A stretch of DNA of 64,000 nucleotides from an uncultured Muribaculaceae bacterium (GCA_964616485.1 CAZTRB010000005.1:11592-75591); one strand, 5' to 3'; counted from the stretch's first letter, positions 8,701 to 30,790 are shown. The notes: a model not told the origin generated them from the sequence alone. Translations and numbers: made by a program.

Positions 8701-9193
8701 TAAAAGGAACTTTACCTTCCATCGTAGAAAGATAACTAACGTTACTTAAATCCATTACTTCTTGAACAGAAGAGGATTGTAATATAGCAAACCCCGTCGT
8801 TCTAGCAGCATAGATATCTTGATGATCTCCTAAAATAGAAAGCGAATGACTCGCTAAAGAACGAGAAGCTACATTTATAACACAAGGAAATAACTGCCCT
8901 GCAATCTTATACATATTAGGAATCATCAACAAGAGTCCTTGAGAAGCCGTAAATGTCGTAGCTAAGATACCATTTTGAAGAGCACCATGAACCATAGCGA
9001 TAGCACCGGCTTCACTCTCCATCTCGACTACTTTTATTTTCGATCCCCAATAATTCTTCTTCCCTTCAGCACTCCAACTATCGACATTCTCAGCCATAGG
9101 TGATGCGGGTGTTATCGGATATATACCGGCTAGTTCAGAAAAATTATAAGCGACTAAACTACACGCTTCATTACCATCCATTATCTTATACAT
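5765..9193 (-). CDS. nifJ: pyruvate:ferredoxin (flavodoxin) oxidoreductase, single-chain PFOR
   Basis: N-terminus MDGNEACSLVAYNFSELAGIYPITPASPMAE. Two 4Fe-4S ferredoxin motifs (CIMCNMCAFVCP, CTGCGLCVNICP). TPP-binding region GGDGWAYDIGYNGLDH. Start taken at ATG 9193, with an AAAGGAG RBS upstream. Confidence 0.92.
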   Translation of the reverse strand: MYKIMDGNEACSLVAYNFSELAGIYPITPASPMAENVDSWSAEGKKNYWGSKIKVVEMESEAGAIAMVHGALQNGILATTFTASQGLLLMIPNMYKIAGQLFPCVINVASRSLASHSLSILGDHQDIYAARTTGFAILQSSSVQEVMDLSNVSYLSTMEGKVPFINTFDGFRTSHELQKIEVIDFQKVKELINEDALKEFRSRALSINNLTRGTNTNDDIYFQLSEARNKYYDNLPDIVNEYMKKINAITGRDYKPFNYYGAKDATKIIVAMGSICETIKETINSLKGEKIGLIEVHLYRPFSSKYLLDVLPDTVTDIAVLSRTKEHGTSEPLYLDISNVIRETGKNIKVVGGRYGLSSKDTDPSLINAVYKFLDRKDKFNGFTIGIKDDLTNLSLDPITLTVDNETKEVVIYGFGSDGMVSVSKDIIKIVGNNTDSYVQGYFEYDSKKSGSVTKSHMRFASKPIKSTYYVNKPCLVVCTKDSYLSKFDMLDDIVENGTFIVNTFKDDKELFKALSNKDRAIIKNRNIKVYSLNANKISNEVGLGNKINTIMATAIFKVSKLIDFEIAFKEIKKALETLFKNKGTEVIEKNNRAIDRALETLTIVDFSGFDDIEDNKSSFVGKSIFDLINERRGYSIPVSEFEKIVDGSFVGGRSKEEKRNITDTVPVYNEENCIMCNMCAFVCPHGVIRPFLLNEEEVENAPESLKAKLIDANIKDQNLKYAIGVNIEQCTGCGLCVNICPGKKGEKALVMTAIEQINDEETLRETDYLFNVVTEKQVMTLNTVKGSQFATPKFEYSGACAGCGETPYIKLLTQLFGEELVIANATGCSSIYGGSVPSTPYSVPWANSLFEDNAEFGFGMRVSEVIHKDKIKMILRDNLSKINDNDLEVVNSYLEDTNLENSKRLYEIVDSLNIPELLEEKDFIKTKSFWIIGGDGWAYDIGYNGLDHVLASNEDVNILVLDTEMYSNTGGQASKSSKYGGIAKFAASGKETHKKNLAKMAMTYPHVYVATVSLGANMMQTIKAFNEAKNHKGPSLIIAYSPCIVQGIKAGMGTSIEEEKKATESGYFPIFRYNPTTEEFSLDSKADFDKYEEFLDGENRYAALNKVNPEKKDDFYDINKREAIRVYEHYESLKEDKKITE

Positions 9194-10142
9194 CAATATT
9201 TCTCCTTTTTAATCCCTTACTCATCTCTTTAATAATGTATATAGGTCTTTTCTTTATCTCTGAATATACCTTCGATAAATAGGCTCCTATTATTCCTAAT
9301 GAGAATAGTTGAACTCCTCCGACGAAGAAGATTAACCAAAATACTAATAACACACTACTTATAGAGACATCTATTATTAAGTTTACCACAATTATAACGA
9401 ATAAGACAAACGCTACGAGAGAAAATAATAGACTCATTACAAAAGGAATCATCAAAGGAACTGTTGAAAAACCAATTATTCCCTCGAAAGCATACACTAA
9501 GAGATTCCAAAAACTCCACTTAGTATTACCTGCCACTCTCTCGACATTCTTATACTCTAACCACTTAGTCTTAAATCCAACGAAAGTAAACAGACCTTTA
9601 GAATAACGATTATACTCTCTCATCGTCAAGATTGAATCGACTACTTGTCTTCTCATCAATCTAAAGTCTCTAGCTCCATCGACCATCTCTGTCTTAGAAA
9701 TTTTATTTATCAACTTATAAAATCTTCTAGCAAAGAAACTCCTAATAGGTGGTTCTCCTTTTCTAGTCGTCCTCCTACAAGCTACGACATCGTAGTCCTC
9801 CTCTTTAATAAGACGATACATCTCTTCTAAAAGACTAGGTGGATCTTGTAAATCAGCATCAAGCGTCGCTACATAATCTCCAGTCGCATGTTCTAATCCC
9901 GCTAAAACAGCACCTTCTTTACCAAAGTTTCTAGAAAGAGAAATATACTCTACTCTCTTATCTTTCTTCTTTAATTCTTTAATATATTCTAAAGTATTAT
10001 CTTTAGAACAATCATTGACAAAGACAAATTCAAAATTAACTTTCTTTAAGTTTTCTGCTATCCTAGTTACTTCTTCATAAAAGTAAGGAAGCGACTCCTC
10101 TTCATTATAACAAGGAACGACTAACGATATTTTTTCTCTCAT
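9186..10142 (-). CDS. GT2 polyprenyl-phosphate sugar transferase (GtrB/CsbB-like), with C-terminal TM helices
   Basis: ISLVVPCYNEEESL ... DADLQDPP (DxD) motif plus two C-terminal TM helices. Overlaps the PFOR start by 8 nt. Confidence 0.8.
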   Translation of the reverse strand: MREKISLVVPCYNEEESLPYFYEEVTRIAENLKKVNFEFVFVNDCSKDNTLEYIKELKKKDKRVEYISLSRNFGKEGAVLAGLEHATGDYVATLDADLQDPPSLLEEMYRLIKEEDYDVVACRRTTRKGEPPIRSFFARRFYKLINKISKTEMVDGARDFRLMRRQVVDSILTMREYNRYSKGLFTFVGFKTKWLEYKNVERVAGNTKWSFWNLLVYAFEGIIGFSTVPLMIPFVMSLLFSLVAFVLFVIIVVNLIIDVSISSVLLVFWLIFFVGGVQLFSLGIIGAYLSKVYSEIKKRPIYIIKEMSKGLKRRNIDV

Positions 10143-10143
10143 A

Positions 10144-11592
10144 CTATTCTTTAATCCTTCTTTCTATTTTTTCAAAGATTCCCATATACCTAACATAAGC
10201 GTCTTTTTCCAAAGGAATCTCATAATACTTTTTAAGTTCTTTTAACTCTTCACTATTTATCGGGTTAAACTTATAGACTAGTTTTAAAGGGTTAGCTTTT
10301 ATCTCGATAGTATTTTGATTAGATTCTAACTGTTCTTTAATGTATTCTCCCCTAGTCTTCTCAAAATAAGATATTAACAAGAAAGAAGAGATATAATAAA
10401 TTACTAACAAGCTCGTTAATAAGACGACTCTCTTACTAACATTAAATTCTTTATTACTAACAAATATTGCTAAGGAACTAATTAAAAATAAAGTAAAGGC
10501 ATAATTATTACCAAAGTCCCACTCCTGTGATATAAGACTAAAAAGACTAACTGCAATCGAGAAGATAAATAAGACATTTATTAATCTCTTACTCTTTAAA
10601 TCTTTACTATAATAGTGAAGACTTCTAATCAATAAATAAAAATATAATAAGTAATAAAAAGCATAATACCAATTCTCTACTGCAAAGAAACCGTTATAAC
10701 GATTAATTACTAAAGTTAAAGATACTGGCGAATAGAAAGAGAAATTATAAATAAAAGAAAAATACAAGATGATATTAAATAAGACGATAAGTATTCTAGA
10801 GTAAATCCCTTTAAGTCTTTCCCCTAAATAAAAGTTAATCGGTATCGTCGACAATATTATTAATAATATATTTCTAGAAAAAGTATTTTCGATAAAATCG
10901 GGAATACTATTAAAGACATAGTTTATATCGAGAATAAAAATACTCTCTTTAAAGAAACTAAAGACGAATAATAAAGTCAAGAGATGAAAGATTACTACTA
11001 AGAGATACTTTTTATTATAATTACATATTAAGTAAAATATATTTGCTATAACAAAAGAAATAGCGATGAAGATAGACGAGGTAATAACATAACTACCGAG
11101 AAGTATCATCATGACATAATCACGATAGTTTCTCTCTTTATCTCTTATACTAAATAGACTATAGAAATATATAAAACCTAGTAATATCGGTATCGTATAA
11201 CTAAAAGCACCACTTACAGAGACGTAATTATAAGCAAACATATCGACGCTGACTAAAAGCATTAATAAAAATGTTATCACATACATAAACTTGTTCTTTA
11301 CTATTCCTAATAGAGTGTTGGTCCTAAAGACAAACATCGAAGTAACTATCGCTATTATCAGATTAAACCAAACTTTATTATAAGAGAATATATTAATAAA
11401 AAAACCACTTATTACTCTTCCGTCTAAAATAGAAGAATTTTCTAAATTATAAGCGATCCCCTCTTTACCTAAAGAAAAAAAAGCCCAATCTATTCCACCT
11501 AATGGAGATAAAAAAGCCACTATCAAAAAGAAGAAAAAGACATATGTCGTTAACTTATATTTATAATCTATCGTTTTAATTCTATCATTCAT
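10144..11592 (-). CDS. polytopic membrane protein (>=10 TM), putative GT-C glycosyltransferase or glycan polymerase partner of the GtrB-like enzyme
   Basis: Hydrophobic throughout, with a ~75-aa soluble C-terminal tail. Sits immediately next to the GtrB-like GT2 in the same operon. Confidence 0.5.
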   Translation of the reverse strand: MNDRIKTIDYKYKLTTYVFFFFLIVAFLSPLGGIDWAFFSLGKEGIAYNLENSSILDGRVISGFFINIFSYNKVWFNLIIAIVTSMFVFRTNTLLGIVKNKFMYVITFLLMLLVSVDMFAYNYVSVSGAFSYTIPILLGFIYFYSLFSIRDKERNYRDYVMMILLGSYVITSSIFIAISFVIANIFYLICNYNKKYLLVVIFHLLTLLFVFSFFKESIFILDINYVFNSIPDFIENTFSRNILLIILSTIPINFYLGERLKGIYSRILIVLFNIILYFSFIYNFSFYSPVSLTLVINRYNGFFAVENWYYAFYYLLYFYLLIRSLHYYSKDLKSKRLINVLFIFSIAVSLFSLISQEWDFGNNYAFTLFLISSLAIFVSNKEFNVSKRVVLLTSLLVIYYISSFLLISYFEKTRGEYIKEQLESNQNTIEIKANPLKLVYKFNPINSEELKELKKYYEIPLEKDAYVRYMGIFEKIERRIKE

Positions 11593-11600
11593 AAAGTCTC

Positions 11601-12080
11601 CTATAACTTATCTATGTAATCCTCTATTAATTTTACCATATTTTTAGTATTACTCTCATACTTTTTAGGTTTAAAAGTCTTAGCTTTTTCTAAAGTCTTA
11701 GAAAGTTTATTAAGATCTTTAAGAGGAAGTATATATTTCTTAGAACTTAATTGTTCGATAATCTCTAATTGATGATCGTTATCATGCTCTTTAAACTTCT
11801 TTAGTCTAGGAGCAGCTATTACAACTTTATTATATTCTAATCCCTGTAAGATAGAACCTACTCCACCATGAGTAATTAATAAACTACAATCTTTAATCAT
11901 CTTAGCAAACTCTTCACGAGAAATAAAATCAAAGATTTTCATATTAGGACTCTCATACTTAGTATGACCTGCTTGGACAATTACTTCTTCTTTAATAGTT
12001 CCTTTCTTTATCTCTCTATCTATTTGCTCTAATAAACGTTTAAACTCTTTATCTTGAGTTCCAAGAGTAACTAATATCAT
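11601..12080 (-). CDS. Alg13-like glycosyltransferase subunit (GT28 C-terminal domain; Cps14G/EpsF-type)
   Basis: MILVTLGTQ ... THGGVGSI motifs. Start ATG 12080 overlaps the Alg14-like stop (TAATG), and a G-rich RBS lies upstream. The ORF-track GTG extension is not used. Confidence 0.75.
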   Translation of the reverse strand: MILVTLGTQDKEFKRLLEQIDREIKKGTIKEEVIVQAGHTKYESPNMKIFDFISREEFAKMIKDCSLLITHGGVGSILQGLEYNKVVIAAPRLKKFKEHDNDHQLEIIEQLSSKKYILPLKDLNKLSKTLEKAKTFKPKKYESNTKNMVKLIEDYIDKL

Positions 12081-12550
12081 TAGTAAATCCACCCCCCATA
12101 AACCGCTTTAGGATAAAGTTTTAACATACTCTCCCATTGAACGATAAATAAATCGGCAAAGAGATAGATTAACCTTCCCGTAATCGTCTTACTCTTACTA
12201 TTAGCAAGCGTCTCGATATAAATAATCTTACTACCGAATATTTTACCGACACAACACATTGGTCCTGCCGTATGAGCACCAGTAGTTATGATTACTTTAG
12301 GTCTAATCTTAAAGTAAAGAAAGAGACTCTTAAAAGAATTATATATTAACTTAAAGGGATAAGTTAATAAATGAGCCTTAGTTCCATAGACTAAATACTT
12401 TACTTTTCCCGGATATTTATCTTTTAAAGTCATATTAGATTTAGTCTTTTCTGTTATTATATAGTGATCATATTTCTCAAACATCGAAGACAACTTCATC
12501 ATCTCAGATAAATGACCACCAGTAGAAGATATAAATAAAACCTTTTTCAT
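12080..12550 (-). CDS. Alg14-like glycosyltransferase membrane-anchoring subunit (Cps14F-type)
   Basis: VLFISSTGGHLSEMMKL motif. Translationally coupled to the Alg13-like gene. Confidence 0.7.
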   Translation of the reverse strand: MKKVLFISSTGGHLSEMMKLSSMFEKYDHYIITEKTKSNMTLKDKYPGKVKYLVYGTKAHLLTYPFKLIYNSFKSLFLYFKIRPKVIITTGAHTAGPMCCVGKIFGSKIIYIETLANSKSKTITGRLIYLFADLFIVQWESMLKLYPKAVYGGWIY

Positions 12551-12557
12551 AAACCAC

Positions 12558-13772
12558 CTATTTTAGTATTTTAAACCAATCTTTCTCTATATTTTTAGCT
12601 AAGTACTTTTGAGATATTTTAAGATTCTCTTTACTTAGTTTTTCTCTATACTTATTATCTTTTAAAATAAGAACGATTTTTTCTTTTAAAAGGCTTAAGT
12701 CTCTATTAGGTATCAAAACATCACTATTATCTTCTAAGACTTCACATATTCCCTTAGCACTATCGAAACCAATAACAGGAAGTCCATAACTAGCAGCTTC
12801 GATTACGACTAAACCGAAAGACTCCGAGAATGATGTAGTTACGAAAAGAGAACTATCTAACATATACTTTTCTATCTTATCTTTAGATAAAAATCCGAGT
12901 AATTCGACATTATCATTTAAAGATAATTTCTTAATTTGTTTCTCTAAATTACTTCTTTCAGACCCATCACCGATTAGGTAAAGCTTAATATTAGGTATAT
13001 TTTCTCTAACCAAAGATAATACTTCTAAAAGGTCAGAGTGTCCTTTTTCTAGAGATAATCTTCCGACATTGATTATGTTATTTGTCTTTAATAGAGATTT
13101 TTTCTTCGGCAATTCGTCTAAGACATTGGGTATATAAAGACACTCTACATTCGTCTTATCTTTATAAAAGTCTCTGAGTTCTCTAGATACTAAGATAAAA
13201 TAAGAAAATCCTTTAATAGAAGATACTAACTTTCTAACATATTTTTTATCGTTATTATGATAGTTGTGATCGGTAACAATTTTTACAATATGTCTATTAC
13301 CATAAGTAGATACTAATCTATTATGGAAGGTCCTAGTAGTAATTACATACTTGCTATTTATTTTAATAATAGCATTAATATTTAAAAGACTTTTTTTAAA
13401 TAAGAGAACAAGAGCTATATATGCTTGTTTTAATATACCAAAGATATTCTTATTAGTTAATTCTTTTTTAAACTCTTCTCTATTAGGTTTAGAATCAATT
13501 AAATATTTTATCTTAATCTTCTTATCAAAATAAAACGCGGGTTGTTCTAGCAACTTATAAGTAGTTATAATCTCTATCTCAAACTTTTTATCTAGCATCT
13601 TACAAAGAGAAGACAAGTACTTTTCGATACCACCATATCCTAAATGAAGAGCTAATATCGTTATCTTATTTTCTTTTAGTTTTCTCTTGTTATATTTTAA
13701 AATTAAAAACACTAAAAATAAGATAATAACAAAAGACAATAATACTAATAACAGTTGCAATATATCACACAC
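12558..13772 (-). CDS. GT4-family (GT-B) glycosyltransferase with an N-terminal TM helix
   Basis: GRLSLEKGHSDLLEV ... ESFGLVVIEAASYGLPVIGFD (the E-x7-E region). Confidence 0.8.
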   Translation of the reverse strand: MCDILQLLLVLLSFVIILFLVFLILKYNKRKLKENKITILALHLGYGGIEKYLSSLCKMLDKKFEIEIITTYKLLEQPAFYFDKKIKIKYLIDSKPNREEFKKELTNKNIFGILKQAYIALVLLFKKSLLNINAIIKINSKYVITTRTFHNRLVSTYGNRHIVKIVTDHNYHNNDKKYVRKLVSSIKGFSYFILVSRELRDFYKDKTNVECLYIPNVLDELPKKKSLLKTNNIINVGRLSLEKGHSDLLEVLSLVRENIPNIKLYLIGDGSERSNLEKQIKKLSLNDNVELLGFLSKDKIEKYMLDSSLFVTTSFSESFGLVVIEAASYGLPVIGFDSAKGICEVLEDNSDVLIPNRDLSLLKEKIVLILKDNKYREKLSKENLKISQKYLAKNIEKDWFKILK

Positions 13773-13812: not shown

Positions 13813-13847
13813 TAGCAAGAAAAAAGATATCTTTTTCAAGATATCTT
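13813..13847 (-). terminator. rho-independent terminator of the giant prepilin-like gene (overlaps its stop codon)
   Basis: Two copies of the palindrome aagatatctt separated by tttc (13824-13847), preceded on plus by an A-run 13816-13823. Confidence 0.6.
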
Positions 13848-16800
13848 ATCCCCAATTTTCACAACCACAAGCTGCTGTTCTACAAGAATTATTTCCTCCT
13901 ACACAAGTACTATAAGTGTATAGACAATTATTCCATCCACATGCACTATGTTGACAATAATAGTATCCGGCACATCCACAGCAATCATTATAACAGGTTG
14001 CAGCTTCCTCACCAGAAACACAACATGTTGTCGAAGTTTTATACCATGTTTGGCCACCCGAACTAGGTTTGCTACTTGCACACTTAGTTCCGCACCCATA
14101 ACCTCCTGTGTTTTGGTAACATTCATAGATATTTCCTTTAGTTTTACAATATGTTCCGCAACAAGAGTAACTAGTACATCTTTTATTTCCAGTACATCCG
14201 CATCCGGCAGTATAACAAGAATTATATCCTCCAACACAAACGGACGGGTTACCTGTTAAACAAGAATTCCATCCACAATTAGCATGTTGACAACTCTTAT
14301 TGGTAACACAACTCGATGTTATAGAACAAGTTCCTGTATTACCCGCTCCATCTGTAACCGTGTATGTCTTTGTACCTTTAACATTTGAATCATTATATGT
14401 AGCTGGAGATACTCCACTTGCATTATCAGAAGTTGTAACTTTTACGGTTATTCCATTAGCTCCATTCGCTGTTTTAACAGCAGTACAAGTAGGATTAACT
14501 GTATCTCTTTTTATCGTAAATACATTAGATGCAGCAGATGCATTACCTGCATTGTCAATTGATCTTACATAGAAATTCCAATTCCCATCCCAGTTTATCG
14601 TCCATGGATTTGACATTGCTGTCCAATTTGCAGCATCATGACTATACTGATAACTAGCAATTCCAGAACCAGTTCCGTCCGAAGATGATGCAGTTATTAC
14701 AACATTAGATTTTGTCCAAGTGCCTGAAGTATAAGAACCTAGATTGATCGTTGGTTTTGAAGGTTTTGTTGCATCTCTCTTTATTGTTACGACATTTGAA
14801 TTATCACTTATGTTACCAGATTTATCTATAGCCCTTACATAAACGTTCGTAGATATATCTGAACTAATTGTCCATGGATTCGACATCGTCGTCCATCCCG
14901 ACGTCCCATTAGTACTATATTCATATCTATCTAAGTTAGTATCCGATGAACTCGCTGTTATGACAATATTTTGATTTGACCATGTATTAGATGTATATGT
15001 AGTACCATCTGCTTTTTTCAAGGTTAAAGTTGGTTTCGACGGTTTCGTCGCATCTCTTTTAACATTAAAGACGTTTGACACATCACTTATATTACCAGCA
15101 CCATCAGTAGACCTTACATAGTAATTACTTTCGACATCTGTACTAATTGTCCATGGATTTGCCATATTTGTCCATCCTGAAGTTCCATTAACACTATATT
15201 CATATTTACTTATTCCTGAAATATTATCAGTTGAACTTGCCGTTACGACTACATTGCCAGAGGTCCATGTCCCTGAAGTATAAGAACCTAAATTGATCGT
15301 CGGTTTCGATGGTTTAGTAGCATCCCTTTTGATAACTACGGCATTAGATACATCACTAACATTTCCTGAGGAATCGATTGCTCTTACATAGATGTTTGTC
15401 GAAGTATCCCAGTTAATCGTCCATGGATTTGTCATAGCCATCCATCCCGATGTTCCGGTCGTACTATATTGATATCCAGCTAAGTTATCATCAGTTGAAC
15501 TTGCTGTAATGATTATATTTTGATTTGACCATGTATTAGATGTATAAGTAGAATTGTCTGCTTTCTTCATTGTCAATGTTGGTTTTGATGGTTTCGTCGC
15601 ATCTCTTCTAACAATAAATGGATTTGAATTATCACTTACGTTACCAGCACCATCAGTCGATCTGACATAGTAAGTTTTATCGGTATCGAAGTTTATCGTC
15701 CATGGATTTGACATCGTCGTCCATCCTGAAGTTCCATTGTTACTATATTCGTATTTGCTTATTCCCGAAATATTATCAGTTGAACTTGCCGTTACGACGA
15801 CATTACCAGAAGTCCATGTACCAGAAGTATACGAACCTAGATTAATCGTCGGCTTCGATGGTTTAGTACCATCTATTTTTACCGTTTGGTTGTTCGGACA
15901 AGTAACACAGTTTCCTGCTCTATCACAAACCTCGCCCGGTCCAGCCGTCGTCGTATTTATATCACTAGTATAAGGTTTAGTAATTGTCGTATTTACACAA
16001 CCACTACCACTATCACTACAAGTACCAATTATATTTACAGTCGTCTTACTCCATGCAGAACTTCCACCACTACTTACACAAGTTGGTTTCGTCGTATCGA
16101 TCGTATCGACGACTACCGCTTTATTAGTAACATGTCCAGCTTGGTCCTTAACCCACACATAATATGTACCATTATCAGAAGCTATATTTGGAACACCAAT
16201 TCCAAAACTAGTTCTTGCCGATATAGCGGTAAATGTCGGTTGTGTCGTCGAACTCTTATTTATACCGTAACCGATTATTCCTGAATTAGTATCTGTTCCG
16301 GTAAATACTATCGTTCCGTTAAGTCCGTCTTGACCAGTATCGATTATCGTCGAGTACGCTACATCCCAACTTACTGAAGTACCAGAACCCGTCAAGTAAA
16401 CGTGTCCGAAAGTCGAGAACGTTCCCGAACTACCCGCTTTTTGAATATAGATATATTCTGCCCAATCTCCAGTTCCAGCTTGTGGAGTGATCCAGTAGAC
16501 GCTTGAACCTGTACCGGTAGAATTAGAAGCTCTTTGAATAGTATACCCAACTGGTATCTTTGCAATTATTCTATGAGCATATACAGCATTAGCTCTCGAA
16601 GTTACAGTTTGAACATAACCTCCTAATCCAGGAGAACTGACACCATTTGTCGTTATTCTCATAACGTATGAACCATATGGGTTAGATTGAGCTACTCTAG
16701 CGTGAGTAACAGTACCATTTCCACTATTATTATATACGCTAAAGTTATTTGTCCCAGAAGCAAACGTCGGATCTTTGAATAACGGAGTCCCTGATATTGC

Positions 16801-18897
16801 TTCTGATATAACCGGAGCATTTTTATCTATTCTTACGATTTGGTCAGCCTGGCAAGTAGTACAGTTTCCTGCATTATCACAAACTTGTCCAGGTGATTCA
16901 TTAGTCGAATTTATATTAGAAGTATATGTTTTCGTTACCGTCGAATTCACACAACCACTATCAGCGTCATTACACGTTCCAGTAATCGTGACATTCGTCG
17001 TTTTCCATGTAGCGCTTCCACCACTATTTATACATGTTGGTGGTTCGTTATCGGCAGTTATCGTTTGGTGATACCATCCGCCACTATTTGGCGATTGAGT
17101 TATGACGTTACCAGCATTATCAACTAGTCTCGTATAAACGGTATATACTCCTCCAGGTAAACTAACAACGTGTTTATTTTGTCCAGTAATAGATGTAATG
17201 CCACCTACAGCAACACCGTTTCTTTCCATCTTGACTTGGAACTCTTTAATACCACTCAAATTATCAGCAACCGTAATTGTCAACGTTTGATTAGCACTAT
17301 ATACTCCCGTTAATAAGCTATAACTTGCAGTAGGAGCCGTCTTGTCGATTCTAGAAATCGTTACTGATGAAGGATCAGATGATAAACCGACAACGTTTCT
17401 CGTACGAACTTGAGCATTCGTTACATTTGACGAATAAATATTATAATTTGTCGATTGCCAAGAAGCGCCATCATTAAACGAATACTCAGTCGTTCTAACT
17501 AATCCAGCTCTTGGAATCAAGTTAACTTTTACATTGTTCTTAGTCCAGATACCTGGAGAAGCAGCGACTAAATCAATTCTAGAAACATTGTAAGATACAC
17601 CACTTAGTGCTCCTAAAACTAATCTAAAGTTAGAGTATTGTCCAACCGAAGGTAAAATAAACTCTATGTCTCTAGTACCTTGAATCATTAATGCTGATAC
17701 TGAGAGTTCATTCCCATTTTGATCTTTAAAGTAGACTCTACCCGTCGTCGTCGTTGGAATATTAGTATTTAAAGTCACAGTTAATTTCTTAATACCATTA
17801 AATGTCGGATACGAAGCAGTACCAAACGTTATAACTGGGTTTGTCGTAGTCGTCGTTAGTATTGTACCCGCTAAATTTAACCCCGAAAGAGTATATTCAT
17901 ATTGGTTAGGGAACAATTGATATGCATACTCAACATCAAATTCTGGTTTTGGAACACCCACTCTTACGTCGATTGAACAAATCCCCTCATTACCCGCTTC
18001 GTCTTTAACATAACCTACGACTGTCGTAAGTCCCATATCTAATTTAAGACTATCTTTTTTATTATAATCAATATTCTTTATACTAGTACCAAGTCCATAA
18101 GTTAAAAGTCCACTATCAGCATCATCTTTAGTATCGAACTTAACATAAACGTCTCCCGAATACCACCCTAACGCTTCTAAGTTTCCGCCATCTCTAATAA
18201 GTGTACAAGTTGGAGGAGTCTTATCGACATATACTTTTACCGGACAACTAGTTTGATTTCCACTCTTATCAACTATATTAATAAAACTCTCAGTAGTAGT
18301 CGTACCAAATGTCTTAGAGAATCTAGCTAAACGACAACCACTAGTTTGGTCACTACAACCAACACTAATTGTTCTATTTTCCTTAGTCCATGTAGTAGAT
18401 TCACCTATGACACTACCACATACCGGATTATCATTATCAGATTCATACTTAGAACAAGCCGAACCTTCAGTAGAATAATTTTCACAATACAAACACGCTC
18501 TATATTCGTAGTCACCACTAACTTTGCTTACCTCAACATAACTAAGTAAACTATTACAAAATCCATCTGTTTCCGGATCTTTTAATTCATCAGAGTAACC
18601 TTTTTCAATAACATCACTCAAATAGACAATAGATCTATCTCCATCGCCTGGTAAATTACAAGTGTAATCATTATTAGCAATACAATCAACAACCATGTTA
18701 TTCGTAGCTGTTTGCATATTCTTTTCATAAGCTAAATAAGTATTATCCTTACTACTTCCAATATAATTAGAAATAGCCGGAACTGTAATGATTGCCAATA
18801 TAGCAATTATCACGATAACGGCGATTACTTCTATTAAAGTAAACCCTTTCTTTTTCTTGGCTTTTTCCAAAATTTTACTAACAGTTTTCTTTCGCAT
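13846..18897 (-). CDS. giant modular type IV pilin-like protein (~1683 aa): class III signal peptide, cysteine-containing HYR/Ig-like modules, five tandem Ig-like repeats and a cysteine-rich C-terminal domain
   Basis: MRKKTVSKILEKAKKKKG|FTLIEVIAVIVIIAILAIITVPAI is a canonical prepilin leader, with Gly at -1, Phe at +1, Glu at +5 and a ~21-residue hydrophobic helix. AAGGAG RBS 8 nt before ATG 18897. The ORF-track upstream extension is translation of the promoter. Repeats of ~88-95 aa begin DATKPSKPT. The last ~160 aa contain about 34 Cys. Confidence 0.8.
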   Translation of the reverse strand: MRKKTVSKILEKAKKKKGFTLIEVIAVIVIIAILAIITVPAISNYIGSSKDNTYLAYEKNMQTATNNMVVDCIANNDYTCNLPGDGDRSIVYLSDVIEKGYSDELKDPETDGFCNSLLSYVEVSKVSGDYEYRACLYCENYSTEGSACSKYESDNDNPVCGSVIGESTTWTKENRTISVGCSDQTSGCRLARFSKTFGTTTTESFINIVDKSGNQTSCPVKVYVDKTPPTCTLIRDGGNLEALGWYSGDVYVKFDTKDDADSGLLTYGLGTSIKNIDYNKKDSLKLDMGLTTVVGYVKDEAGNEGICSIDVRVGVPKPEFDVEYAYQLFPNQYEYTLSGLNLAGTILTTTTTNPVITFGTASYPTFNGIKKLTVTLNTNIPTTTTGRVYFKDQNGNELSVSALMIQGTRDIEFILPSVGQYSNFRLVLGALSGVSYNVSRIDLVAASPGIWTKNNVKVNLIPRAGLVRTTEYSFNDGASWQSTNYNIYSSNVTNAQVRTRNVVGLSSDPSSVTISRIDKTAPTASYSLLTGVYSANQTLTITVADNLSGIKEFQVKMERNGVAVGGITSITGQNKHVVSLPGGVYTVYTRLVDNAGNVITQSPNSGGWYHQTITADNEPPTCINSGGSATWKTTNVTITGTCNDADSGCVNSTVTKTYTSNINSTNESPGQVCDNAGNCTTCQADQIVRIDKNAPVISEAISGTPLFKDPTFASGTNNFSVYNNSGNGTVTHARVAQSNPYGSYVMRITTNGVSSPGLGGYVQTVTSRANAVYAHRIIAKIPVGYTIQRASNSTGTGSSVYWITPQAGTGDWAEYIYIQKAGSSGTFSTFGHVYLTGSGTSVSWDVAYSTIIDTGQDGLNGTIVFTGTDTNSGIIGYGINKSSTTQPTFTAISARTSFGIGVPNIASDNGTYYVWVKDQAGHVTNKAVVVDTIDTTKPTCVSSGGSSAWSKTTVNIIGTCSDSGSGCVNTTITKPYTSDINTTTAGPGEVCDRAGNCVTCPNNQTVKIDGTKPSKPTINLGSYTSGTWTSGNVVVTASSTDNISGISKYEYSNNGTSGWTTMSNPWTINFDTDKTYYVRSTDGAGNVSDNSNPFIVRRDATKPSKPTLTMKKADNSTYTSNTWSNQNIIITASSTDDNLAGYQYSTTGTSGWMAMTNPWTINWDTSTNIYVRAIDSSGNVSDVSNAVVIKRDATKPSKPTINLGSYTSGTWTSGNVVVTASSTDNISGISKYEYSVNGTSGWTNMANPWTISTDVESNYYVRSTDGAGNISDVSNVFNVKRDATKPSKPTLTLKKADGTTYTSNTWSNQNIVITASSSDTNLDRYEYSTNGTSGWTTMSNPWTISSDISTNVYVRAIDKSGNISDNSNVVTIKRDATKPSKPTINLGSYTSGTWTKSNVVITASSSDGTGSGIASYQYSHDAANWTAMSNPWTINWDGNWNFYVRSIDNAGNASAASNVFTIKRDTVNPTCTAVKTANGANGITVKVTTSDNASGVSPATYNDSNVKGTKTYTVTDGAGNTGTCSITSSCVTNKSCQHANCGWNSCLTGNPSVCVGGYNSCYTAGCGCTGNKRCTSYSCCGTYCKTKGNIYECYQNTGGYGCGTKCASSKPSSGGQTWYKTSTTCCVSGEEAATCYNDCCGCAGYYYCQHSACGWNNCLYTYSTCVGGNNSCRTAACGCENWG
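14500..15870 (-). repeat. five tandem ~265-285 bp intragenic repeats (alternating two subtypes) encoding Ig-like modules
   Basis: Recurring ...ggtttcgatggtttagtagcatc... blocks at about 15834, 15571, 15290, 15036 and 14741. Protein repeats are TKPSKPTINLGSYTSGTWT.../TKPSKPTLTxKKAD... Confidence 0.8.
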
Positions 18898-18931
18898 AAT
18901 AAAGCTCCTTGTATTATCTTTTATATATAAC

Positions 18932-18960
18932 ATTTTAATATCTTTATACATAATAGTCAA
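18932..18960 (-). promoter_or_regulatory. sigma-A-type promoter of the prepilin-like gene (TTGACT-17-TAAAAT)
   Basis: Reverse complement of agtcaa at 18955-18960 gives the -35. Reverse complement of atttta at 18932-18937 gives the -10. The spacer is 17 nt. Confidence 0.5.
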
Positions 18961-19043: not shown

Positions 19044-19072
19044 TAGACACTATATACAATATATTATATAAT
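19044..19072 (+). promoter_or_regulatory. sigma-A-type promoter of the dockerin-hydrolase gene (TAGACA-17-TATAAT), divergent from the pilin-like gene
   Basis: tagaca at 19044-19049, a 17-nt spacer, tataat at 19067-19072. Confidence 0.5.
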
Positions 19073-19105: not shown

Positions 19106-21121
19106 ATGAAGAGATTTTTATTCGTGATTCTTTTGATATTGCTTCTTTTTAATAGTGGAACAGCACATGCAGAAATTATTAAGACTGGTCGGGCTATAGC
19201 CGATGTTGGGCTTAGAATTAGAGCTACTCCCTCTACTAGCGGAACACAATTAGGAACGATACCCTATGGAACGATAGTTAGAATCATCGGTGAAGCGAAT
19301 GGTTCGGGATGTAACGATCCTTGGTTTCAAGTAATTTACTCTACTGGTAATAGTAATATAAACGGTTATTCTTGTTCTACTTATATAACGGAAATTACGG
19401 AGTATGATACTGAAGAGAATACGCCTACAACACCACCAGTAAATAGCGAGGACTTCGAAGCCTACTTAACTTCACAAGGATTCCCAGAAAGCTACAAAGT
19501 CAAACTAAGAATTTTACACGAACAACATCCTAATTGGATATTTGTCGGTATAAAAGTAAGAGAGTCTTGGCAAACGTCTTTAAATCTTCAAGGCGAAGAT
19601 GGAAGAAGTACATTAAATGTTAATGCGGCAAGAAAGGCTTTGGGGCAAGAGGGATATTTATCGACTGCAGCGGGACACTATAACTATGAGACTGACACTT
19701 TTATTCCTAAAGATGGTACTTATTGGTTTCAAGCTAACTCAGATGCTATTGGATATTACCTTGACCCAAGAAACTTCATGGACGAGAAAAATGTTTTCAT
19801 GTTCGAAAGTCTTTTACAAAACGATGCTATTCATACTAAATCAGTAGTCGACGGGATCTTGTCGAGTGACTTCATGAAACAATATTCTAATCATTTCATG
19901 AAAGGTGCAAGAGACTACAACGTTTCTGCTACGCACTTAGCATCACTATCTAGACAAGAAGTAGGAATTACTAACGGTAACATTGTTACTAACGGAAAAG
20001 CCGGAGTATTATCAGACGGAGTTAACTATAACGGTTACTATAACTTTTTTAATATCGGAGCATCATCATCGGGAGATCCGAAGTTAAAATCGTTACAAAG
20101 CGCTAAAGCTCGCGGCTGGAATTCACCTGAGAAATCAATCGTTGGTGGAGCGGCTTTTATATCTAGTGGTTATATTAATGCCGGACAATACACGGCTTAT
20201 CTTCAAAAGTTTAACGTCGATCCTAATGCTACTAAAGGAATATGGCATCAGTATATGACTAACATAGCGGCATTATCTTCGCCGGCAATTACGACATATA
20301 ACTCATATAATAATCTCGGTTTCATAAACCATTCATTTATATTCTCGATTCCAATATTTACTAATATGCCAGAAAGCACTTCGTTACCTCCCTTAGGTAA
20401 CCCAAATAACTGGCTAAAAGAAATAAAGATAAATGGTATCGCTTTATCTAGTTTCTACGGTGGTACCACTAATTACACCATCGATATTCCTTACGAGGAA
20501 GAGATTACAGTAGAGGCTAAAAAAGTAAATAGTAACGCTACTGTATCAGGAACTGGAACAAAAGCCTTAACGGAAGACAAAACCACTTTAACGATTAAAG
20601 TCACTGCTCAAAACGGAAGCGTTAAAAACTATACGGTAACAGTTAATCGTGGGATAAAAGACGATCCTAACTTAGAGATAGATCTTCTATTAAAAGATGT
20701 CTTAACTGATAGCAAATACAAATACGATAGTAAAAATCTTTGGGGAATAACTCTAGGAACTAGCGTTAAGAGTCTTACTAGTAAAATAAAAGGAAAATAT
20801 AAAACAGTAAGTGTAAATATAAAAAATAAAGACGGCAATACTAAAACAGACGGTGTCATAGTTACAGGAGATAAAGTAACGATAACGACTAAACAAGAAT
20901 CTACTACTATCGAAGTAATAATCTTTGGTGATACTAATGGAGACGGATACATCTCGGCAATCGACATCTTAAGCGCTCAAAAACATATCCTTGGATATAC
21001 TACTCTTTTAGGAACTAGTTTCAAAGCGGCAGACATAAATAAAGACGGTGTCATATCAGCTTATGACTTACTACAATTTCAAAAACACGTCTTAGGTTAT
21101 ACTAATATAAGCCAATCATAG
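19106..21121 (+). CDS. secreted multidomain putative peptidoglycan hydrolase: signal peptide, SH3b, GH73/glucosaminidase-like domain, cadherin-like beta-sandwich and a C-terminal dockerin
   Basis: GGAGGTG RBS. Signal peptide ...GTAHA. SH3b-like region IRATPSTSGTQLGTIPYGTIVRI. GH73-like motifs LSRQEVG...NFFNIGA...YMTNIAA. Cadherin-like region LKEIKINGIALS...TIKVTAQNGSVKNYTVTV. Dockerin repeats GDTNGDGYISAIDIL and DINKDGVISAYDLL. Confidence 0.7.
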   Translation: MKRFLFVILLILLLFNSGTAHAEIIKTGRAIADVGLRIRATPSTSGTQLGTIPYGTIVRIIGEANGSGCNDPWFQVIYSTGNSNINGYSCSTYITEITEYDTEENTPTTPPVNSEDFEAYLTSQGFPESYKVKLRILHEQHPNWIFVGIKVRESWQTSLNLQGEDGRSTLNVNAARKALGQEGYLSTAAGHYNYETDTFIPKDGTYWFQANSDAIGYYLDPRNFMDEKNVFMFESLLQNDAIHTKSVVDGILSSDFMKQYSNHFMKGARDYNVSATHLASLSRQEVGITNGNIVTNGKAGVLSDGVNYNGYYNFFNIGASSSGDPKLKSLQSAKARGWNSPEKSIVGGAAFISSGYINAGQYTAYLQKFNVDPNATKGIWHQYMTNIAALSSPAITTYNSYNNLGFINHSFIFSIPIFTNMPESTSLPPLGNPNNWLKEIKINGIALSSFYGGTTNYTIDIPYEEEITVEAKKVNSNATVSGTGTKALTEDKTTLTIKVTAQNGSVKNYTVTVNRGIKDDPNLEIDLLLKDVLTDSKYKYDSKNLWGITLGTSVKSLTSKIKGKYKTVSVNIKNKDGNTKTDGVIVTGDKVTITTKQESTTIEVIIFGDTNGDGYISAIDILSAQKHILGYTTLLGTSFKAADINKDGVISAYDLLQFQKHVLGYTNISQS

Positions 21122-21130
21122 GAGGACTTT

Positions 21131-22546
21131 ATGAAAAAAATCTTTAAACCATTTACAATGGTTTTCCTTTTTACAGTGATGTTTTTGTTTAATAATAACG
21201 TCTTGGCAGCTAACTTAAATGTCTCGATAACCTCGAGTACTAGTAGAGCGGTAGTTGGTAACAATATTACTTATACGGTTAGAGTGTCTTCTAATGCTAA
21301 ATTTGGTAATATTCATTATAGATTAGAATATGACACTTCTAAGTTAACTCATGTAAGTGGAACACTAAATAATTTTGATTTAAATGTTATCGATAAATAT
21401 TCTGCTACTTACACTTTTACTTTTAGAGCAAAAGCAAGTGGTAATGCTAGAGTAACGTTCGTAATCAACGAAGCCTTAGAATTAAATAACAATTCTTTTA
21501 ATTATAATACTAGAACCAATAAAGATATAACGATCATAACTCAACAACAATTAGAAGCTAGCTATAGTAAAAACAACTACCTATCATCTTTAAAAATAGA
21601 TAATTTTGAAATGACACCGGCTTTTAATAAAGATACTTTAGAATACTCGATAGAATTAGAAAACGATGTTAAATCAATAAATATTAGCGGTACTAAAGCA
21701 GATTCAACAGCATCAGTCGAAGGTTTGGGTGCACATGAATTAATAGAAGGACCAAATAAAATAAATATAAAAGTTACTGCCCAAAACGGTGCCTCTAGAA
21801 CATATACGATAAATGCAACGGTAAAAGAATTAAATCCCATTATCGTAACTGTCGACGGCAAAGAATATAATGTCGTTAGAAAAAAAGACCTAATAAAAAA
21901 ACCTAATAGCAAATACGAAGAGACGATTATACAAATAAATGAAGAAGATGTCCCAGCTTTCATAAACGAGACGACTAAAGTAACATTAATCGGGCTTAGA
22001 GATGAAGAGGACAACATTTCTTTATTTAGTGTTAAAAATGATACGTATATTCCTTACCAAGAATTCGCTTTTAGTAGTATAATATTTACGGAAGAAAATT
22101 TAGACGATCTTCCTAAAGGTTATACTAAAACTAAATTAAAACTCGAAGAAGTAGAAATAGACGCTTATCAAGATAACTCTAACTTAAATTTCTACCTAAT
22201 AAAAGGAGTGAACATTGAAACGGGAATAACTTCCCTATATCAATATGATAGTAAAGAAAACACTCTTCAAATATATAATGATTCATTAGCTAAACAAAAT
22301 AAGGAATTAACTAATAAGAATAATATTTATCTTTATACTATAATTGGTCTAATAGCACTCATAGCTATATCTTCCGGAACGATATTAGTAAAGACTTTAA
22401 AAAATGAAAAACCTAAAATAAAAAAAGAAGAGAAGACCGACAAAAAAGTCAAAGAAAAAGTAGAGGAACCGAAAGAACCTATCATAGAAGAAGAGAGTCT
22501 AACAAAACAAATAAAGAAAATGAAAAAAAATAAAAAACAATCTTAA
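21131..22546 (+). CDS. membrane-anchored cohesin-like scaffold protein (signal peptide, cohesin-like domain, cadherin-like domain, C-terminal TM and Lys-rich tail)
   Basis: AGGAGG RBS. Cohesin-like pattern NVSITSSTSRAVVGNNITYTVRVSSN...IHYRLEYDTSKLTHVSG...RVTFVINEA. Cadherin-like region LSSLKIDNFEMTPAF...INIKVTAQNGASRTYTINATV. TM helix IIGLIALIAISSGTILV followed by a lysine-rich tail. Confidence 0.6.
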   Translation: MKKIFKPFTMVFLFTVMFLFNNNVLAANLNVSITSSTSRAVVGNNITYTVRVSSNAKFGNIHYRLEYDTSKLTHVSGTLNNFDLNVIDKYSATYTFTFRAKASGNARVTFVINEALELNNNSFNYNTRTNKDITIITQQQLEASYSKNNYLSSLKIDNFEMTPAFNKDTLEYSIELENDVKSINISGTKADSTASVEGLGAHELIEGPNKINIKVTAQNGASRTYTINATVKELNPIIVTVDGKEYNVVRKKDLIKKPNSKYEETIIQINEEDVPAFINETTKVTLIGLRDEEDNISLFSVKNDTYIPYQEFAFSSIIFTEENLDDLPKGYTKTKLKLEEVEIDAYQDNSNLNFYLIKGVNIETGITSLYQYDSKENTLQIYNDSLAKQNKELTNKNNIYLYTIIGLIALIAISSGTILVKTLKNEKPKIKKEEKTDKKVKEKVEEPKEPIIEEESLTKQIKKMKKNKKQS

Positions 22547-22561
22547 TATACTGGAGGAATT

Positions 22562-24667
22562 ATGAAAAAGAAAAAGATCAAATACCAAAATATATTCACA
22601 ATACTTTGTATCTTAAGCAGCTTATATCTAATCCAATCTATCTACTTATTTTCACAAATAGAAACAGTTATTAGATACTCTGTAATTGGTATTTTAGTTC
22701 TTTTCGACTTCTTTATATTAATTAAGATGTTTTTCTTAAAGACTAAAAAAACTATTATATATATTATAGTCTTAGTCTTTTTTAGTGGAATATATATATT
22801 CTTAGGATACAATTTAAATAGAATATACTCTTATTTTACTAACTTAAATAAGACGATTACTTATTCGACTAGTTTAGTTACCTTAAAAAGTACTAAAGAT
22901 GTCGATCTAATAACACTTAAGAATGCTAATATAGGTCTTATCGATGATCCGACTTCTGAAGATGGACACATCTTAGCACAAGAGATAATAAAGAAAGAGA
23001 GTTTATCTAAAAACAATAATATTATCTATAGGCATTCATATACTGAACTTATATTAGATTTATATGATAAAGACTTAGACTATATTTTTCTTCCTAGTTC
23101 TTATGTCGATATCTTTAGTACGATCGAAGGTCTTGAAGATATAGAAGATAAAATTAAGACTATTCTAACGACAGAGATGGAAAAGACTAAAGAAGAGGCA
23201 CAACTATTAGGAGATCCTAAGAATATAGATGAACCATTCACGATGTTATTAATAGGTATTGATTCAACGGCTGATGGTATTCAAAATGCCGACTCATTTA
23301 ATGGAGATTCTCTTATGGTACTTACTTTTAATCCTAAGACGATGACTGCTACGATGTTAAGTATACCTAGAGATACGTATGTTCCAATAGCATGCTTTCC
23401 AAATAAAATAGAAAATAAGATAACTCATTCTGCTTCTCGTGGTACAAGTTGTGTTATAAATACTATTCAAAACTTATTGGATATAAAAATAGACTATTAT
23501 ATGAAGATTAACTTTACTGGTCTAGTCGAACTAGTCGATGCCGTCGGTGGAGTCGAAGTCGATGTTCCTTATAGTTTTTGTGAACAAAATAGTAAGAGAA
23601 AATTCGGTAATAGTACTATCTATGTAAAAGAAGGTTTAAGGACACTTAATGGTGAAGAGGCCTTAGCATTATCTAGAAATAGAAAGAATAATTATGAATA
23701 TTGTTCTAAAGAATGGACTAAGGGAAATAGAAGTGACTTTGTAAGAGCAGAGAACCAACAAAAAGTAGTTCAAGGAATATTAAATAAAGTAAAAGGTTAT
23801 ACTTCTATTAACAAAATAGAAGAGTTATTAAAAATAGTCTCTAAAAACTTAGATACTAATATGAGTGAGAAGACGATTTTCTCATTCTATAATATTGCAA
23901 AGGATGTCATGATATCATCGTCTAATTCTGATATACTATCTATTCAAAGATTAGAGATAGTCGGATGGGGACAAACGATATACGATGAGACATCTAAGTT
24001 ACAGTTGTGGAATTATGTTCCAAATAAGAGAAGTACCGAAGATGTAAAAGAAGCTATTAAAATAAATTTAGGACTGAAAAAACATGAGTTAATCAAGACT
24101 TTCACTTATTCTTGGAAAGAAGAATATACTCAAAAGATTCCAGGTAAAGGGCCTTATAGTATATATACTACTTATGACTTGCTAAAAGACTTTACTAACA
24201 TGAATATAACGGATGTCGAGCTATGGGCTGAAAAAAACGACATTACTTTAGTCATAGAAGAAGTAGAAAAGGTCGGTTACAAAAATGGTACAGTCGTTAA
24301 TCAAGAGTATCCAGTTAATAAGAGATTAGATTTAATACCCGATAGAACATTAAAAATAGAAGTAGTCAAGAATAAAGATACTAAAATAGACTGTTTAAAA
24401 GACGAGGAAAACATTATTTGTCTAATACCTGACTTTATCGGTAAAACTAAGAAAGACGTAGCTCTTTGGGGAAATAAGTTCTCTAATCTAGTAGATGTTA
24501 AATATGTAGAAGTGGAGTCTGAAGAAGAAGAGAATACGATAATAGATCAAACGATTAAAGGTATTACGATAAAAGAATTACTTGAGAATAAAGAGAGTAT
24601 CACTTTTACTATCGTTAAGAAAAAAGAAATAATACCACCTATCGAAGAAGAAATGGAAGAAGAATAA
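22562..24667 (+). CDS. LCP (LytR-CpsA-Psr) family glycopolymer ligase with an N-terminal membrane region and an extended C-terminal domain
   Basis: TMLLIGIDSTADG ... DSLMVLTFNP ... SIPRDTYVPIA ... DYYMKINFTGLVELVDAVGGVEVDV. C-terminal ~250 aa of unknown fold with an acidic tail. Confidence 0.8.
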   Translation: MKKKKIKYQNIFTILCILSSLYLIQSIYLFSQIETVIRYSVIGILVLFDFFILIKMFFLKTKKTIIYIIVLVFFSGIYIFLGYNLNRIYSYFTNLNKTITYSTSLVTLKSTKDVDLITLKNANIGLIDDPTSEDGHILAQEIIKKESLSKNNNIIYRHSYTELILDLYDKDLDYIFLPSSYVDIFSTIEGLEDIEDKIKTILTTEMEKTKEEAQLLGDPKNIDEPFTMLLIGIDSTADGIQNADSFNGDSLMVLTFNPKTMTATMLSIPRDTYVPIACFPNKIENKITHSASRGTSCVINTIQNLLDIKIDYYMKINFTGLVELVDAVGGVEVDVPYSFCEQNSKRKFGNSTIYVKEGLRTLNGEEALALSRNRKNNYEYCSKEWTKGNRSDFVRAENQQKVVQGILNKVKGYTSINKIEELLKIVSKNLDTNMSEKTIFSFYNIAKDVMISSSNSDILSIQRLEIVGWGQTIYDETSKLQLWNYVPNKRSTEDVKEAIKINLGLKKHELIKTFTYSWKEEYTQKIPGKGPYSIYTTYDLLKDFTNMNITDVELWAEKNDITLVIEEVEKVGYKNGTVVNQEYPVNKRLDLIPDRTLKIEVVKNKDTKIDCLKDEENIICLIPDFIGKTKKDVALWGNKFSNLVDVKYVEVESEEEENTIIDQTIKGITIKELLENKESITFTIVKKKEIIPPIEEEMEEE

Positions 24668-24729: not shown

Positions 24730-24758
24730 TTGACAATTAATATACTATATAGTATAAT
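24730..24758 (+). promoter_or_regulatory. consensus sigma-A promoter of rnj (TTGACA-17-TATAAT)
   Basis: ttgaca at 24730-24735, a 17-nt spacer, tataat at 24753-24758. Confidence 0.6.
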
Positions 24759-30435: not shown

Positions 30436-30790
30436 AAATAATATTAATAAGCCATGTTCTGTTCCTATTTCTAGGCGACAAACATTTATCTACCGAATTA
30501 CTTCAGTCCTTAACTCCGTTTGATTCCTTCGTTAAAGTTCCTCTACCGAAATTTGAGTTTCTCGCTTGCGGGGTTTATCACGTTCCACTTCCATCGTTTC
30601 CAACTTGTTCGTCACTATGACACTTTATAGCTAATCTAGTCATATCCGAAGACTTAGACTATTTCGCCGCCGTTAGTTACCTACCTAGAGTTATTTTTTC
30701 CTCTAGCACAAACACTACAGACATCTCAGCCTGTGCGAGCATGGACTTTCCTCTATATTATTAAAAATACAGCGTTTGTCTTAATATTAT
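30436..30790 (-). ncRNA. rnpB: RNase P RNA, Bacillus-type (type B)
   Basis: Minus strand reads ...GAGGAAAGTCCATGCTCGCACAGGCTGAGATG..., which is near-identical to the B. subtilis rnpB 5' core, and ...ACAAGTTGGAAACGATGGAAGTGGAACG...ACATGGCTTATT at the 3' side. P1 forms between ATAATATTAAG (5') and CTTATTAATATTAT (3'). Lies next to gpsB, as in Bacillus. End coordinates are +/-10 nt. Confidence 0.85.

Follow-up and report, generated by a model that had tools for sequence, protein, structure and literature searches.

A dockerin-tagged GH73 glucosaminidase and a cohesin-like membrane protein: a putative minimal tether in uncultured gut Bacilli

Cohesin-dockerin pairs are familiar above all as the joints that hold cellulosomes together; few examples are known that do not serve polysaccharide degradation, and most of these are uncharacterised. 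A locus from an uncultured Muribaculaceae bacterium (GCA_964616485.1 CAZTRB010000005.1:11592-75591) raises the question whether such a pair might hold an enzyme of the cell's own wall in place. All coordinates refer to the whole stretch of 64,000 nucleotides that was analysed, hereafter the window (64 kb). Two adjoining open reading frames (ORFs) on the + strand exactly fill the interval 19106-22546 that the initial annotation had singled out. They are designated gene A and gene B, and their products protein A (671 amino acids, aa) and protein B (471 aa). In our view, A and B are likely to constitute a minimal cohesin-dockerin pair of the non-cellulosomal kind that tethers a housekeeping autolysin. 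What the sequences show are the identities of the domains, features of topology, conservation of the catalytic and Ca-binding residues and a strict 1:1 synteny throughout the clade; from these we infer that A binds B and acts on the cell's own wall. The two genes and the modules that would join their products are:

19106-21121, + strand: gene A, predicted secreted dockerin-tagged GH73 N-acetylglucosaminidase, 671 aa
21131-22546, + strand: gene B, predicted type-I membrane protein with an N-terminal cohesin-like domain, 471 aa; proposed anchor or scaffold
20927-21094, + strand: dockerin of A with two 22-residue Ca-binding repeats, DTNGDGYISAIDILSAQKHILG and DINKDGVISAYDLLQFQKHVLG; Pfam Dockerin_1
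21209-21541, + strand: cohesin-like domain of B, residues 27-137, assigned from orthologues, profiles and predicted fold

Linkage of the two modules and the dockerin of A

One genome per GTDB species was scanned, and 225 genomes contained a relative of B. The best 80 of these 225 species genomes and four metagenomic contigs provided 84 related loci. Almost all of the best 80 are metagenome-assembled genomes named 'uncultured Bacilli bacterium' from the guts of rabbits, ruminants, mice and humans. Some are labelled Mycoplasmatota, Mollicutes, Erysipelotrichaceae or Clostridium sp. CAG:762, and one is a closed chromosome of 1.31 Mb. In 84 of 84 loci, B is immediately preceded on its strand by an A-type dockerin gene, and in 83 of them the GH73 domain resides on the same ORF as the dockerin. 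This synteny is the strongest evidence that the dockerin and the cohesin-like module belong together. A cellulosome is characterised by a multi-cohesin scaffoldin with a carbohydrate-binding module (CBM) and by many dockerin-bearing plant-wall enzymes. Searches with hidden Markov models found exactly one ORF with the dockerin and exactly one with the cohesin-like domain in the 64-kb window, and the same was true of every one of the 85 loci searched (793 kb in total). Together with neighbours devoted to wall synthesis and division, this bears out the non-cellulolytic setting assumed in the initial annotation.

The dockerin of A can be assigned with ease. Dockerin_1 (PF00404) covers residues 608-663 with an E-value of 2.9e-12 (47 bits, cut-off 22.9; profile positions 2-57 of 57), and the family profile of A finds type I dockerins in the PDB (2ccl, 5.8e-12; 1ohz, 9e-11). 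The two canonical repeats that had been noticed at the end of the 671-aa protein are therefore genuine. The dockerin motif reads GDTNGDGYISAIDIL at residues 608-622 and ADINKDGVISAYDLL at residues 642-656. Positions 1, 3, 5 and 12 of the Ca loops are occupied by D609, N611, D613 and D620 in the first repeat and by D643, N645, D647 and D654 in the second. Nearly all of 78 orthologues have D or N at these ligand positions, and at least 69 of the 78 keep the ligand positions and the Q-K pair, which is Q625-K626 and Q659-K660 in A, in both repeats. Among 120 A homologues listed, all but two carry Dockerin_1 according to precomputed Pfam assignments; three are called beta-N-acetylglucosaminidase by JGI. 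The analogy with Clostridium perfringens, which had been preferred over a cellulosome, holds in part: The pair is non-cellulosomal, but its dockerin is nearer to cellulosomal type I dockerins than to the dockerin of C. perfringens NagH (2jnk), which was matched weakly (0.011).

Identity of the two repeats is 0.69 within one protein; it falls to 0.52 when they are taken from different proteins and to 0.57 when orthologous repeats are compared. It was also observed that positions 10-11 and 14-15 often alter identically in both repeats. By these comparisons, the two repeats evolve in concert, as do those of dual-binding-mode cellulosomal dockerins. In the latter, concerted evolution is the hallmark of a surface constrained by its partner and capable of two binding modes.

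Identity of the N-terminal domain of B

Whether B can receive this dockerin depends on its N-terminal domain, which had been taken for a cohesin. It contains V..GNNITYTVRVSS, IHYRLEYDTSKLTHVSG and RVTFVINEA, and all other peptide motifs quoted in the initial annotation are likewise present in A and B. From hundreds of B homologues, 40 full-length sequences with 40-84% identity were aligned. The Pfam Cohesin family (PF00963) is matched by 17 of these 40 orthologues (40-56% identical to B; best E-value 9e-8). Eight of them were checked singly and reached 25-33 bits at a cut-off of 24.1, with alignments covering up to positions 2-134 of 139. When a profile of the B domain was compared with the PDB, cohesins took the first four ranks (3l8q, 1e-4; 2y3n, 3e-4; 1tyj; 5g5d). 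An AlphaFold2 model of residues 26-142 (predicted local distance difference test score, pLDDT, 97) has 8-9 strands, cohesins being defined by a nine-stranded flattened beta-sandwich (jelly-roll). The best TM-score that Foldseek returned for this model, 0.72, was to the cohesin 4ums. An exhaustive search with the domain profile found two multi-cohesin scaffoldins, one with 10 cohesins, CBM3 and a dockerin and one with 9 cohesins. In hhalign, the profile scored 96.3% (1.5e-9) against 19 scaffoldin cohesins. Because cohesins were ahead in the profile comparisons and YRLEYDTSKLTHV, the YD..KL stretch of B, lines up with the cohesin motif YDP.VL, the N-terminal domain is most likely a short, divergent member of the cohesin family. 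This assignment rests on the orthologues, the profiles and the predicted fold.

A number of results weigh against this assignment or against a contact with the dockerin. Pfam scans of the pair itself found Dockerin_1 on A but not Cohesin on B, even at E ≤ 1, though the family is matched in the orthologues mentioned above. In the Foldseek ranking for the B model, the first cohesin comes after a CLIPPER domain and TRAP subunits. The exhaustive search also uncovered a protein with 32 DUF11 repeats (about 1e-4 per repeat), and DUF11 repeats scored 91.7% (7.8e-7) in hhalign, so that DUF11/CARDB-type repeats match nearly as well as cohesins; both alignments span only the first ~80 residues. BatD matches were obtained in 7 of the 40 orthologues. 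With 111-117 residues, the domain is short compared to the 139 positions of the Pfam model. Finally, residue covariation was calculated for 83 dockerin/B pairs as mutual information with average product correction. The top pairs link dockerin residues 622/656 and 619/653 to B residues 58-59 and 116. High scores nevertheless make up 1.3% for the cohesin-like domain and 1.05% for the membrane-proximal domain of B, which means that the cohesin-like domain is not singled out, and the values are confounded by phylogeny.

Such results would be expected if the N-terminal domain of B were a generic surface beta-sandwich of the DUF11/CARDB/BatD type that does not bind dockerins. A and B would then be neighbours due to a shared role in the envelope, and the dockerin would be a Ca-dependent stabiliser or bind another partner. 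Orphan dockerin-like modules are common outside cellulosomes, which fits this proposal, as do the missing Pfam match of B, the DUF11 and BatD similarities and the Foldseek ranking. The YRLEYDTSKLTHV motif, however, is gapped in the DUF11 alignment, and the invariable adjacency of the two genes with one dockerin per cohesin-like domain is hard to explain otherwise. We therefore regard a generic beta-sandwich as quite improbable. The cohesin claim of the initial annotation thus stands as far as orthologues, profiles and hhalign are concerned. It does not stand for a Pfam match on B itself, and the fold and the first 80 residues are shared with DUF11/CARDB-type domains.

The remainder of B has the following features:

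21131-21208, + strand: signal peptide of B, ending ...NNNVLA, from sequence and alignment; the Ala-Ala junction is nearly invariant
21581-21820, + strand: cadherin-like beta-sandwich domain of B (Pfam PF12733, residues 151-230, 7.8e-9), found in 40 of 40 orthologues
21836-22306, + strand: membrane-proximal all-beta ectodomain of B, 160 residues; probable stalk/spacer or second interaction module
22325-22390, + strand: single transmembrane helix of B, IYLYTIIGLIALIAISSGTILV, residues 399-420, read from the sequence
22391-22543, + strand: Lys/Glu-rich cytoplasmic tail of B, of low complexity; its length varies among orthologues

These features predict a type-I membrane protein with its N-terminus outside. 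The helix and the Lys-rich tail had been recognised before, and the hydrophobic stretch followed by K/R-rich sequence is kept in all 40 aligned orthologues. The ectodomain domains were confidently modelled as a rigid-looking stack. For the membrane-proximal domain, no relative was detectable among solved structures, so it may represent a new fold.

The enzyme and its proposed tether

Upstream of its dockerin, A comprises the following elements:

19106-19171, + strand: Sec signal peptide of A, MKRFLFVILLILLLFNSGTAHA, read from the sequence; probable cleavage after AHA
19208-19387, + strand: bacterial SH3 (SH3b) domain of A, probable peptidoglycan-binding module (Pfam SH3_3, residues 35-94, 1.9e-11)
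19682-20320, + strand: GH73 glucosaminidase catalytic domain of A; Glu285 codon at 19958-19960
20420-20650, + strand: cadherin-like beta-sandwich domain of A (Pfam PF12733, residues 439-515, 4.3e-5; 24.3 bits, barely over the cut-off of 24.2)
20663-20905, + strand: ~80-residue module that separates the dockerin of A from the cadherin-like domain, conserved in most orthologues

The Pfam family Glucosaminidase matches A weakly (0.046; 14.8 bits, cut-off 30.2). Despite this score, sequence comparison clearly places the catalytic region in GH73, because NCBIfam SagB and solved SagB and Atl structures match it. A PDB search with the single sequence found SagB (6fxp, 2.2e-16) and Atl (6fxo, 2.7e-14). 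With the family profile of A (39 sequences), the best match was the SagB chain 6u0o_B (3.6e-26), and 6u0o and 6fxp (SagB), 6fxo (Atl) and 4pi7 (AtlE) ranged from 1e-21 to 4e-26. In the alignment with SagB, Glu285 falls on the Glu of the LLETG motif, and none of the 78 orthologues departs from it. Conservation extends to the YYNF and QY motifs, with Y312-N313 and Q382-Y383. The family profile of A also matches the PDB SH3b domains 2kt8 and 2krs at about 1e-6. The proposal of a peptidoglycan enzyme with SH3b and GH73-like domains was thus well founded.

Cadherin-like domains are present in both proteins, as had been noticed. They resemble each other in nearly every species (phmmer, about 1e-10), which points to a duplication; through these domains, A and B might also touch at a second site or have a ligand in common. 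The module between the cadherin-like domain and the dockerin matched nothing in Pfam or the PDB. It was considered whether it might be an X-module. This idea found no support, as there is no Pfam match and the X-module-dockerin chains 2b59, 3kcp and 5g5d align over the dockerin alone.

The similarity of the catalytic domain to SagB invites a different view of the pair. A and B could be a functional analogue of Staphylococcus aureus SagB-SpdC, with B acting as a ruler that would fix the height of the GH73 domain above the membrane and thereby the length at which nascent lipid-linked glycan strands are cut. The closest solved catalytic relatives of A are SagB structures, with the chain from the complex, 6u0o_B, at the top (NCBIfam SagB, 5.6e-22). 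SagB itself depends on a partner in the membrane for scaffolding and orientation (bioRxiv 10.1101/2020.05.21.109470). In B, likewise a membrane protein, the ectodomain was modelled with confidence and looks rigid, and a class A penicillin-binding protein (PBP) is encoded 9 kb away. However, A reaches only 78 bits where the NCBIfam cut-off for SagB is 425, i.e., it is not a SagB equivalog. It has a cleavable signal peptide instead of the N-terminal transmembrane anchor of SagB. B is single-pass and lacks an SpdC-like CPBP/CAAX-protease domain; its sole Pfam match is Cadherin-like. Furthermore, the cohesin-like domain is membrane-distal, and further domains of A lie between GH73 and dockerin. 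Consequently, the active site would probably be separated from the membrane by tens of nm of tether rather than clamped. Taken together, a SagB-SpdC analogue is improbable.

The tethering of an autolysin by a cohesin-dockerin pair, which we prefer, could proceed as follows. The Sec system would export A and B, and both signal peptides would be cleaved. B would stay in the membrane by its single C-terminal transmembrane helix and present its cohesin at the membrane-distal tip of a stalk composed of the cadherin-like domain and the beta domain without known fold relative. A, otherwise free, would dock onto this cohesin through its C-terminal, internally symmetric, Ca-dependent dockerin. SH3b and perhaps the cadherin-like domains would engage the wall. 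With Glu285 as general acid, GH73 would cut glycan strands of the cell's own peptidoglycan during wall maturation, turnover or separation of daughter cells. A bolder version of this scheme is speculative, and we give it a small chance of being correct. In it, the 1:1 cohesin-dockerin joint has been recruited as the standard membrane holder of the main glucosaminidase in reduced-genome, thin-walled gut Bacilli, and the stalk of B determines how high in the wall the enzyme works. The pair might then measure or release newly made peptidoglycan, as a molecular ruler or release factor with a function like that of SagB-SpdC but built from cellulosome parts.

Non-cellulosomal cohesin-dockerin pairs are known from C. 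perfringens, Archaeoglobus (2xdh) and the amylosome of Ruminococcus bromii. NagJ, NagH and NanJ of C. perfringens (2w1n, 2vo8, 2ozn) are glycoside hydrolases that likewise act on non-plant glycans without a cellulosome. In contrast to A and B, they are secreted toxins or enzymes joined to each other, whereas the proposed partner of A is a membrane anchor. Moreover, the A dockerin is close to cellulosomal type I dockerins (0.011 for NagH against 6e-12), and its cargo is an autolysin-type GH73. The nearest dockerin class is represented by Xyn10B Doc-CipA Coh from C. thermocellum (1ohz/2ccl), with two symmetric Ca-binding repeats as in A. Cellulosomal type I dockerins share the concerted evolution of their repeats and the same logic, attachment of an enzyme to a cell-bound cohesin protein. 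Unlike a cellulosome, the window and the 85 loci contain neither a multi-cohesin scaffoldin nor a CBM nor enzymes for plant cell walls. B would be anchored by a transmembrane helix instead of the S-layer homology (SLH) domains or sortase of anchoring scaffoldins, and its cohesin-like domain, at about 115 aa, is shorter than cellulosomal cohesins and lies beneath Pfam detection. SagB in the SagB-SpdC complex (6u0o) is the closest solved relative of the catalytic domain of A and a GH73 glucosaminidase dependent on a membrane protein that is encoded or acts with it, as is proposed for A. Its partner is polytopic and CAAX-protease-like and is contacted between transmembrane segments, whereas the partner of A is single-pass with a proposed extracellular cohesin-dockerin joint.

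A comparable arrangement on record is a lone cohesin/dockerin associated with GH73 in non-cellulolytic Ruminococcus bicirculans, according to Ze et al. (2015; PMC4611034). R. bicirculans belongs to the Clostridia (Ruminococcaceae), whereas A and B occur in small-genome uncultured Bacilli (about 225 species). The finding in R. bicirculans reportedly goes back to Wegmann et al. 2014. Literature searches yielded no description of the Bacilli pair. This kind of pair has thus been noticed before, though uncharacterised, and the A/B pair is a well-supported and widely conserved example. If the proposed tether is real, it would be a dedicated, genetically linked 1:1 pair with an autolysin as cargo and a clean natural system for a minimal tether in cell-wall biology. 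It could explain how peptidoglycan hydrolases are positioned in lineages with few classical wall-anchoring devices. Furthermore, surface display in Gram-positive hosts would gain a cohesin-dockerin pair that is compact and orthogonal.

Probable operon, neighbourhood and lineage

The pair is flanked by a promoter-like site and a third wall gene:

19044-19072, + strand: promoter-like site TAGACA-17-TATAAT upstream of gene A, agreeing with the consensus in 11/12 positions; consensus match only
22562-24667, + strand: LCP-family glycopolymer-to-peptidoglycan transferase with C-terminal PASTA (Pfam LytR_cpsA_psr 1.7e-38, PASTA 1.9e-7; NCBIfam CpsA/TagU/LytR-like)

The ribosome-binding site of A, GGAGG, is located 8 nt before the ATG. 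B starts 9 nt downstream of the A stop codon with a GGAGG site of its own, and the gap between B and the LCP gene amounts to 15 nt; a GGAGG site precedes each gene. Between 18700 and 24900, no terminator-like site was found, and the next promoter is located at 24730. Due to the short gaps, the single strong promoter-like site and the lack of a terminator-like site before 24730, A, B and the LCP-PASTA gene look like one operon, whose transcript probably starts at the 19044-19072 site. Of the 84 related loci, 32 contain an LCP gene, which in most cases follows B immediately. In the mechanism proposed above, this operon partner would attach glycopolymers to the same wall. The transferase has two C-terminal PASTA-like stretches with the best match at residues 622-672, a combination that may be unusual.

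With a GC content of ~30%, the window represents core chromosome of the low-GC Firmicute type. A class B RNase P RNA (30444-30787, - strand, 296 bits) fits Firmicutes/Bacilli. The neighbours include wall-glycopolymer genes for GT2, GT28/Alg14 and GT4 glycosyltransferases (GTs), RNase J, RecA, pgsA, the class A PBP and an RNase Y-like ORF that was assigned via orthologous loci. In related loci, O-antigen-ligase-like and GT genes of wall-polysaccharide clusters are found beside the A-B pair. In DICM01000030.1 (6015-16679) from Bacillales bacterium UBA5026, a probable spore-former, the pair is located three genes upstream of murG-murB-ftsQ-ftsA-ftsZ-spoIIP. No signs of plant-polysaccharide degradation, phages or mobile elements were seen among the neighbours in the window and the related loci. 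An origin from a phage endolysin or mobile element was ruled out by the signal peptides on A and B, the core chromosomal neighbours and the conservation of the locus across species.

The uncultured orders RF39, RFN20 and ML615J-28 are described as thin-walled and are reported to have lost most lyt/cwl hydrolases; RFN20 and ML615J-28 also lack sortases (PMC10868615). For RF39, ML615J-28 and part of RFN20, gaps in precursor synthesis are predicted, and they might scavenge muropeptides (PMC10868615). The window organism is related to these orders and may belong to one of them. A housekeeping function of the autolysin is supported by the neighbouring genes for LCP, the class A PBP, wall glycosyltransferases, RecA, RNases J/Y and pgsA and by the division cluster, and also by the reported losses of lyt/cwl hydrolases and sortases in the related orders.

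The scavenging lifestyle opens another view, according to which the pair is a surface-displayed weapon or foraging tool: The tethered muramidase-like enzyme would lyse neighbouring cells or harvest muropeptides for a lineage with incomplete precursor synthesis. An enzyme on a long stalk would suit this purpose, and SH3b domains are typical of lytic enzymes. However, the genes around A and B serve synthesis of the own wall and division, and no immunity, secretion-system or toxin-type partner gene was seen in the neighbourhood. In addition, the own wall of a thin-walled cell would be open to the same enzyme, and the window organism can be placed only tentatively in the scavenging orders. Altogether, a weapon or foraging tool is highly improbable, and a tethered housekeeping autolysin remains our preferred reading.

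Two other parts of the neighbourhood deserve mention. The wall-glycopolymer cluster at 9186-13772 (- strand) is composed of GT2, a split GT28-C/Alg14 pair and GT4. It also encodes a 482-aa protein without a Pfam match that is possibly a polymerase or ligase. The gene at 13846-18960 (- strand) is divergent from the A-B-LCP operon and encodes a protein of 1704 aa. Its N-terminus shows a methylation signal of the prepilin type (N_methyl, 5.8e-7; IV_pilin_GFxxxE). Six beta-barrel domains of the OmpL47 type (NF047446, 1e-43) come next, and the C-terminus is rich in Cys. By these matches, the protein looks like a giant pseudopilin-like surface protein. In one related locus, its position is taken by a different large protein (Flg_new, 1068 aa).

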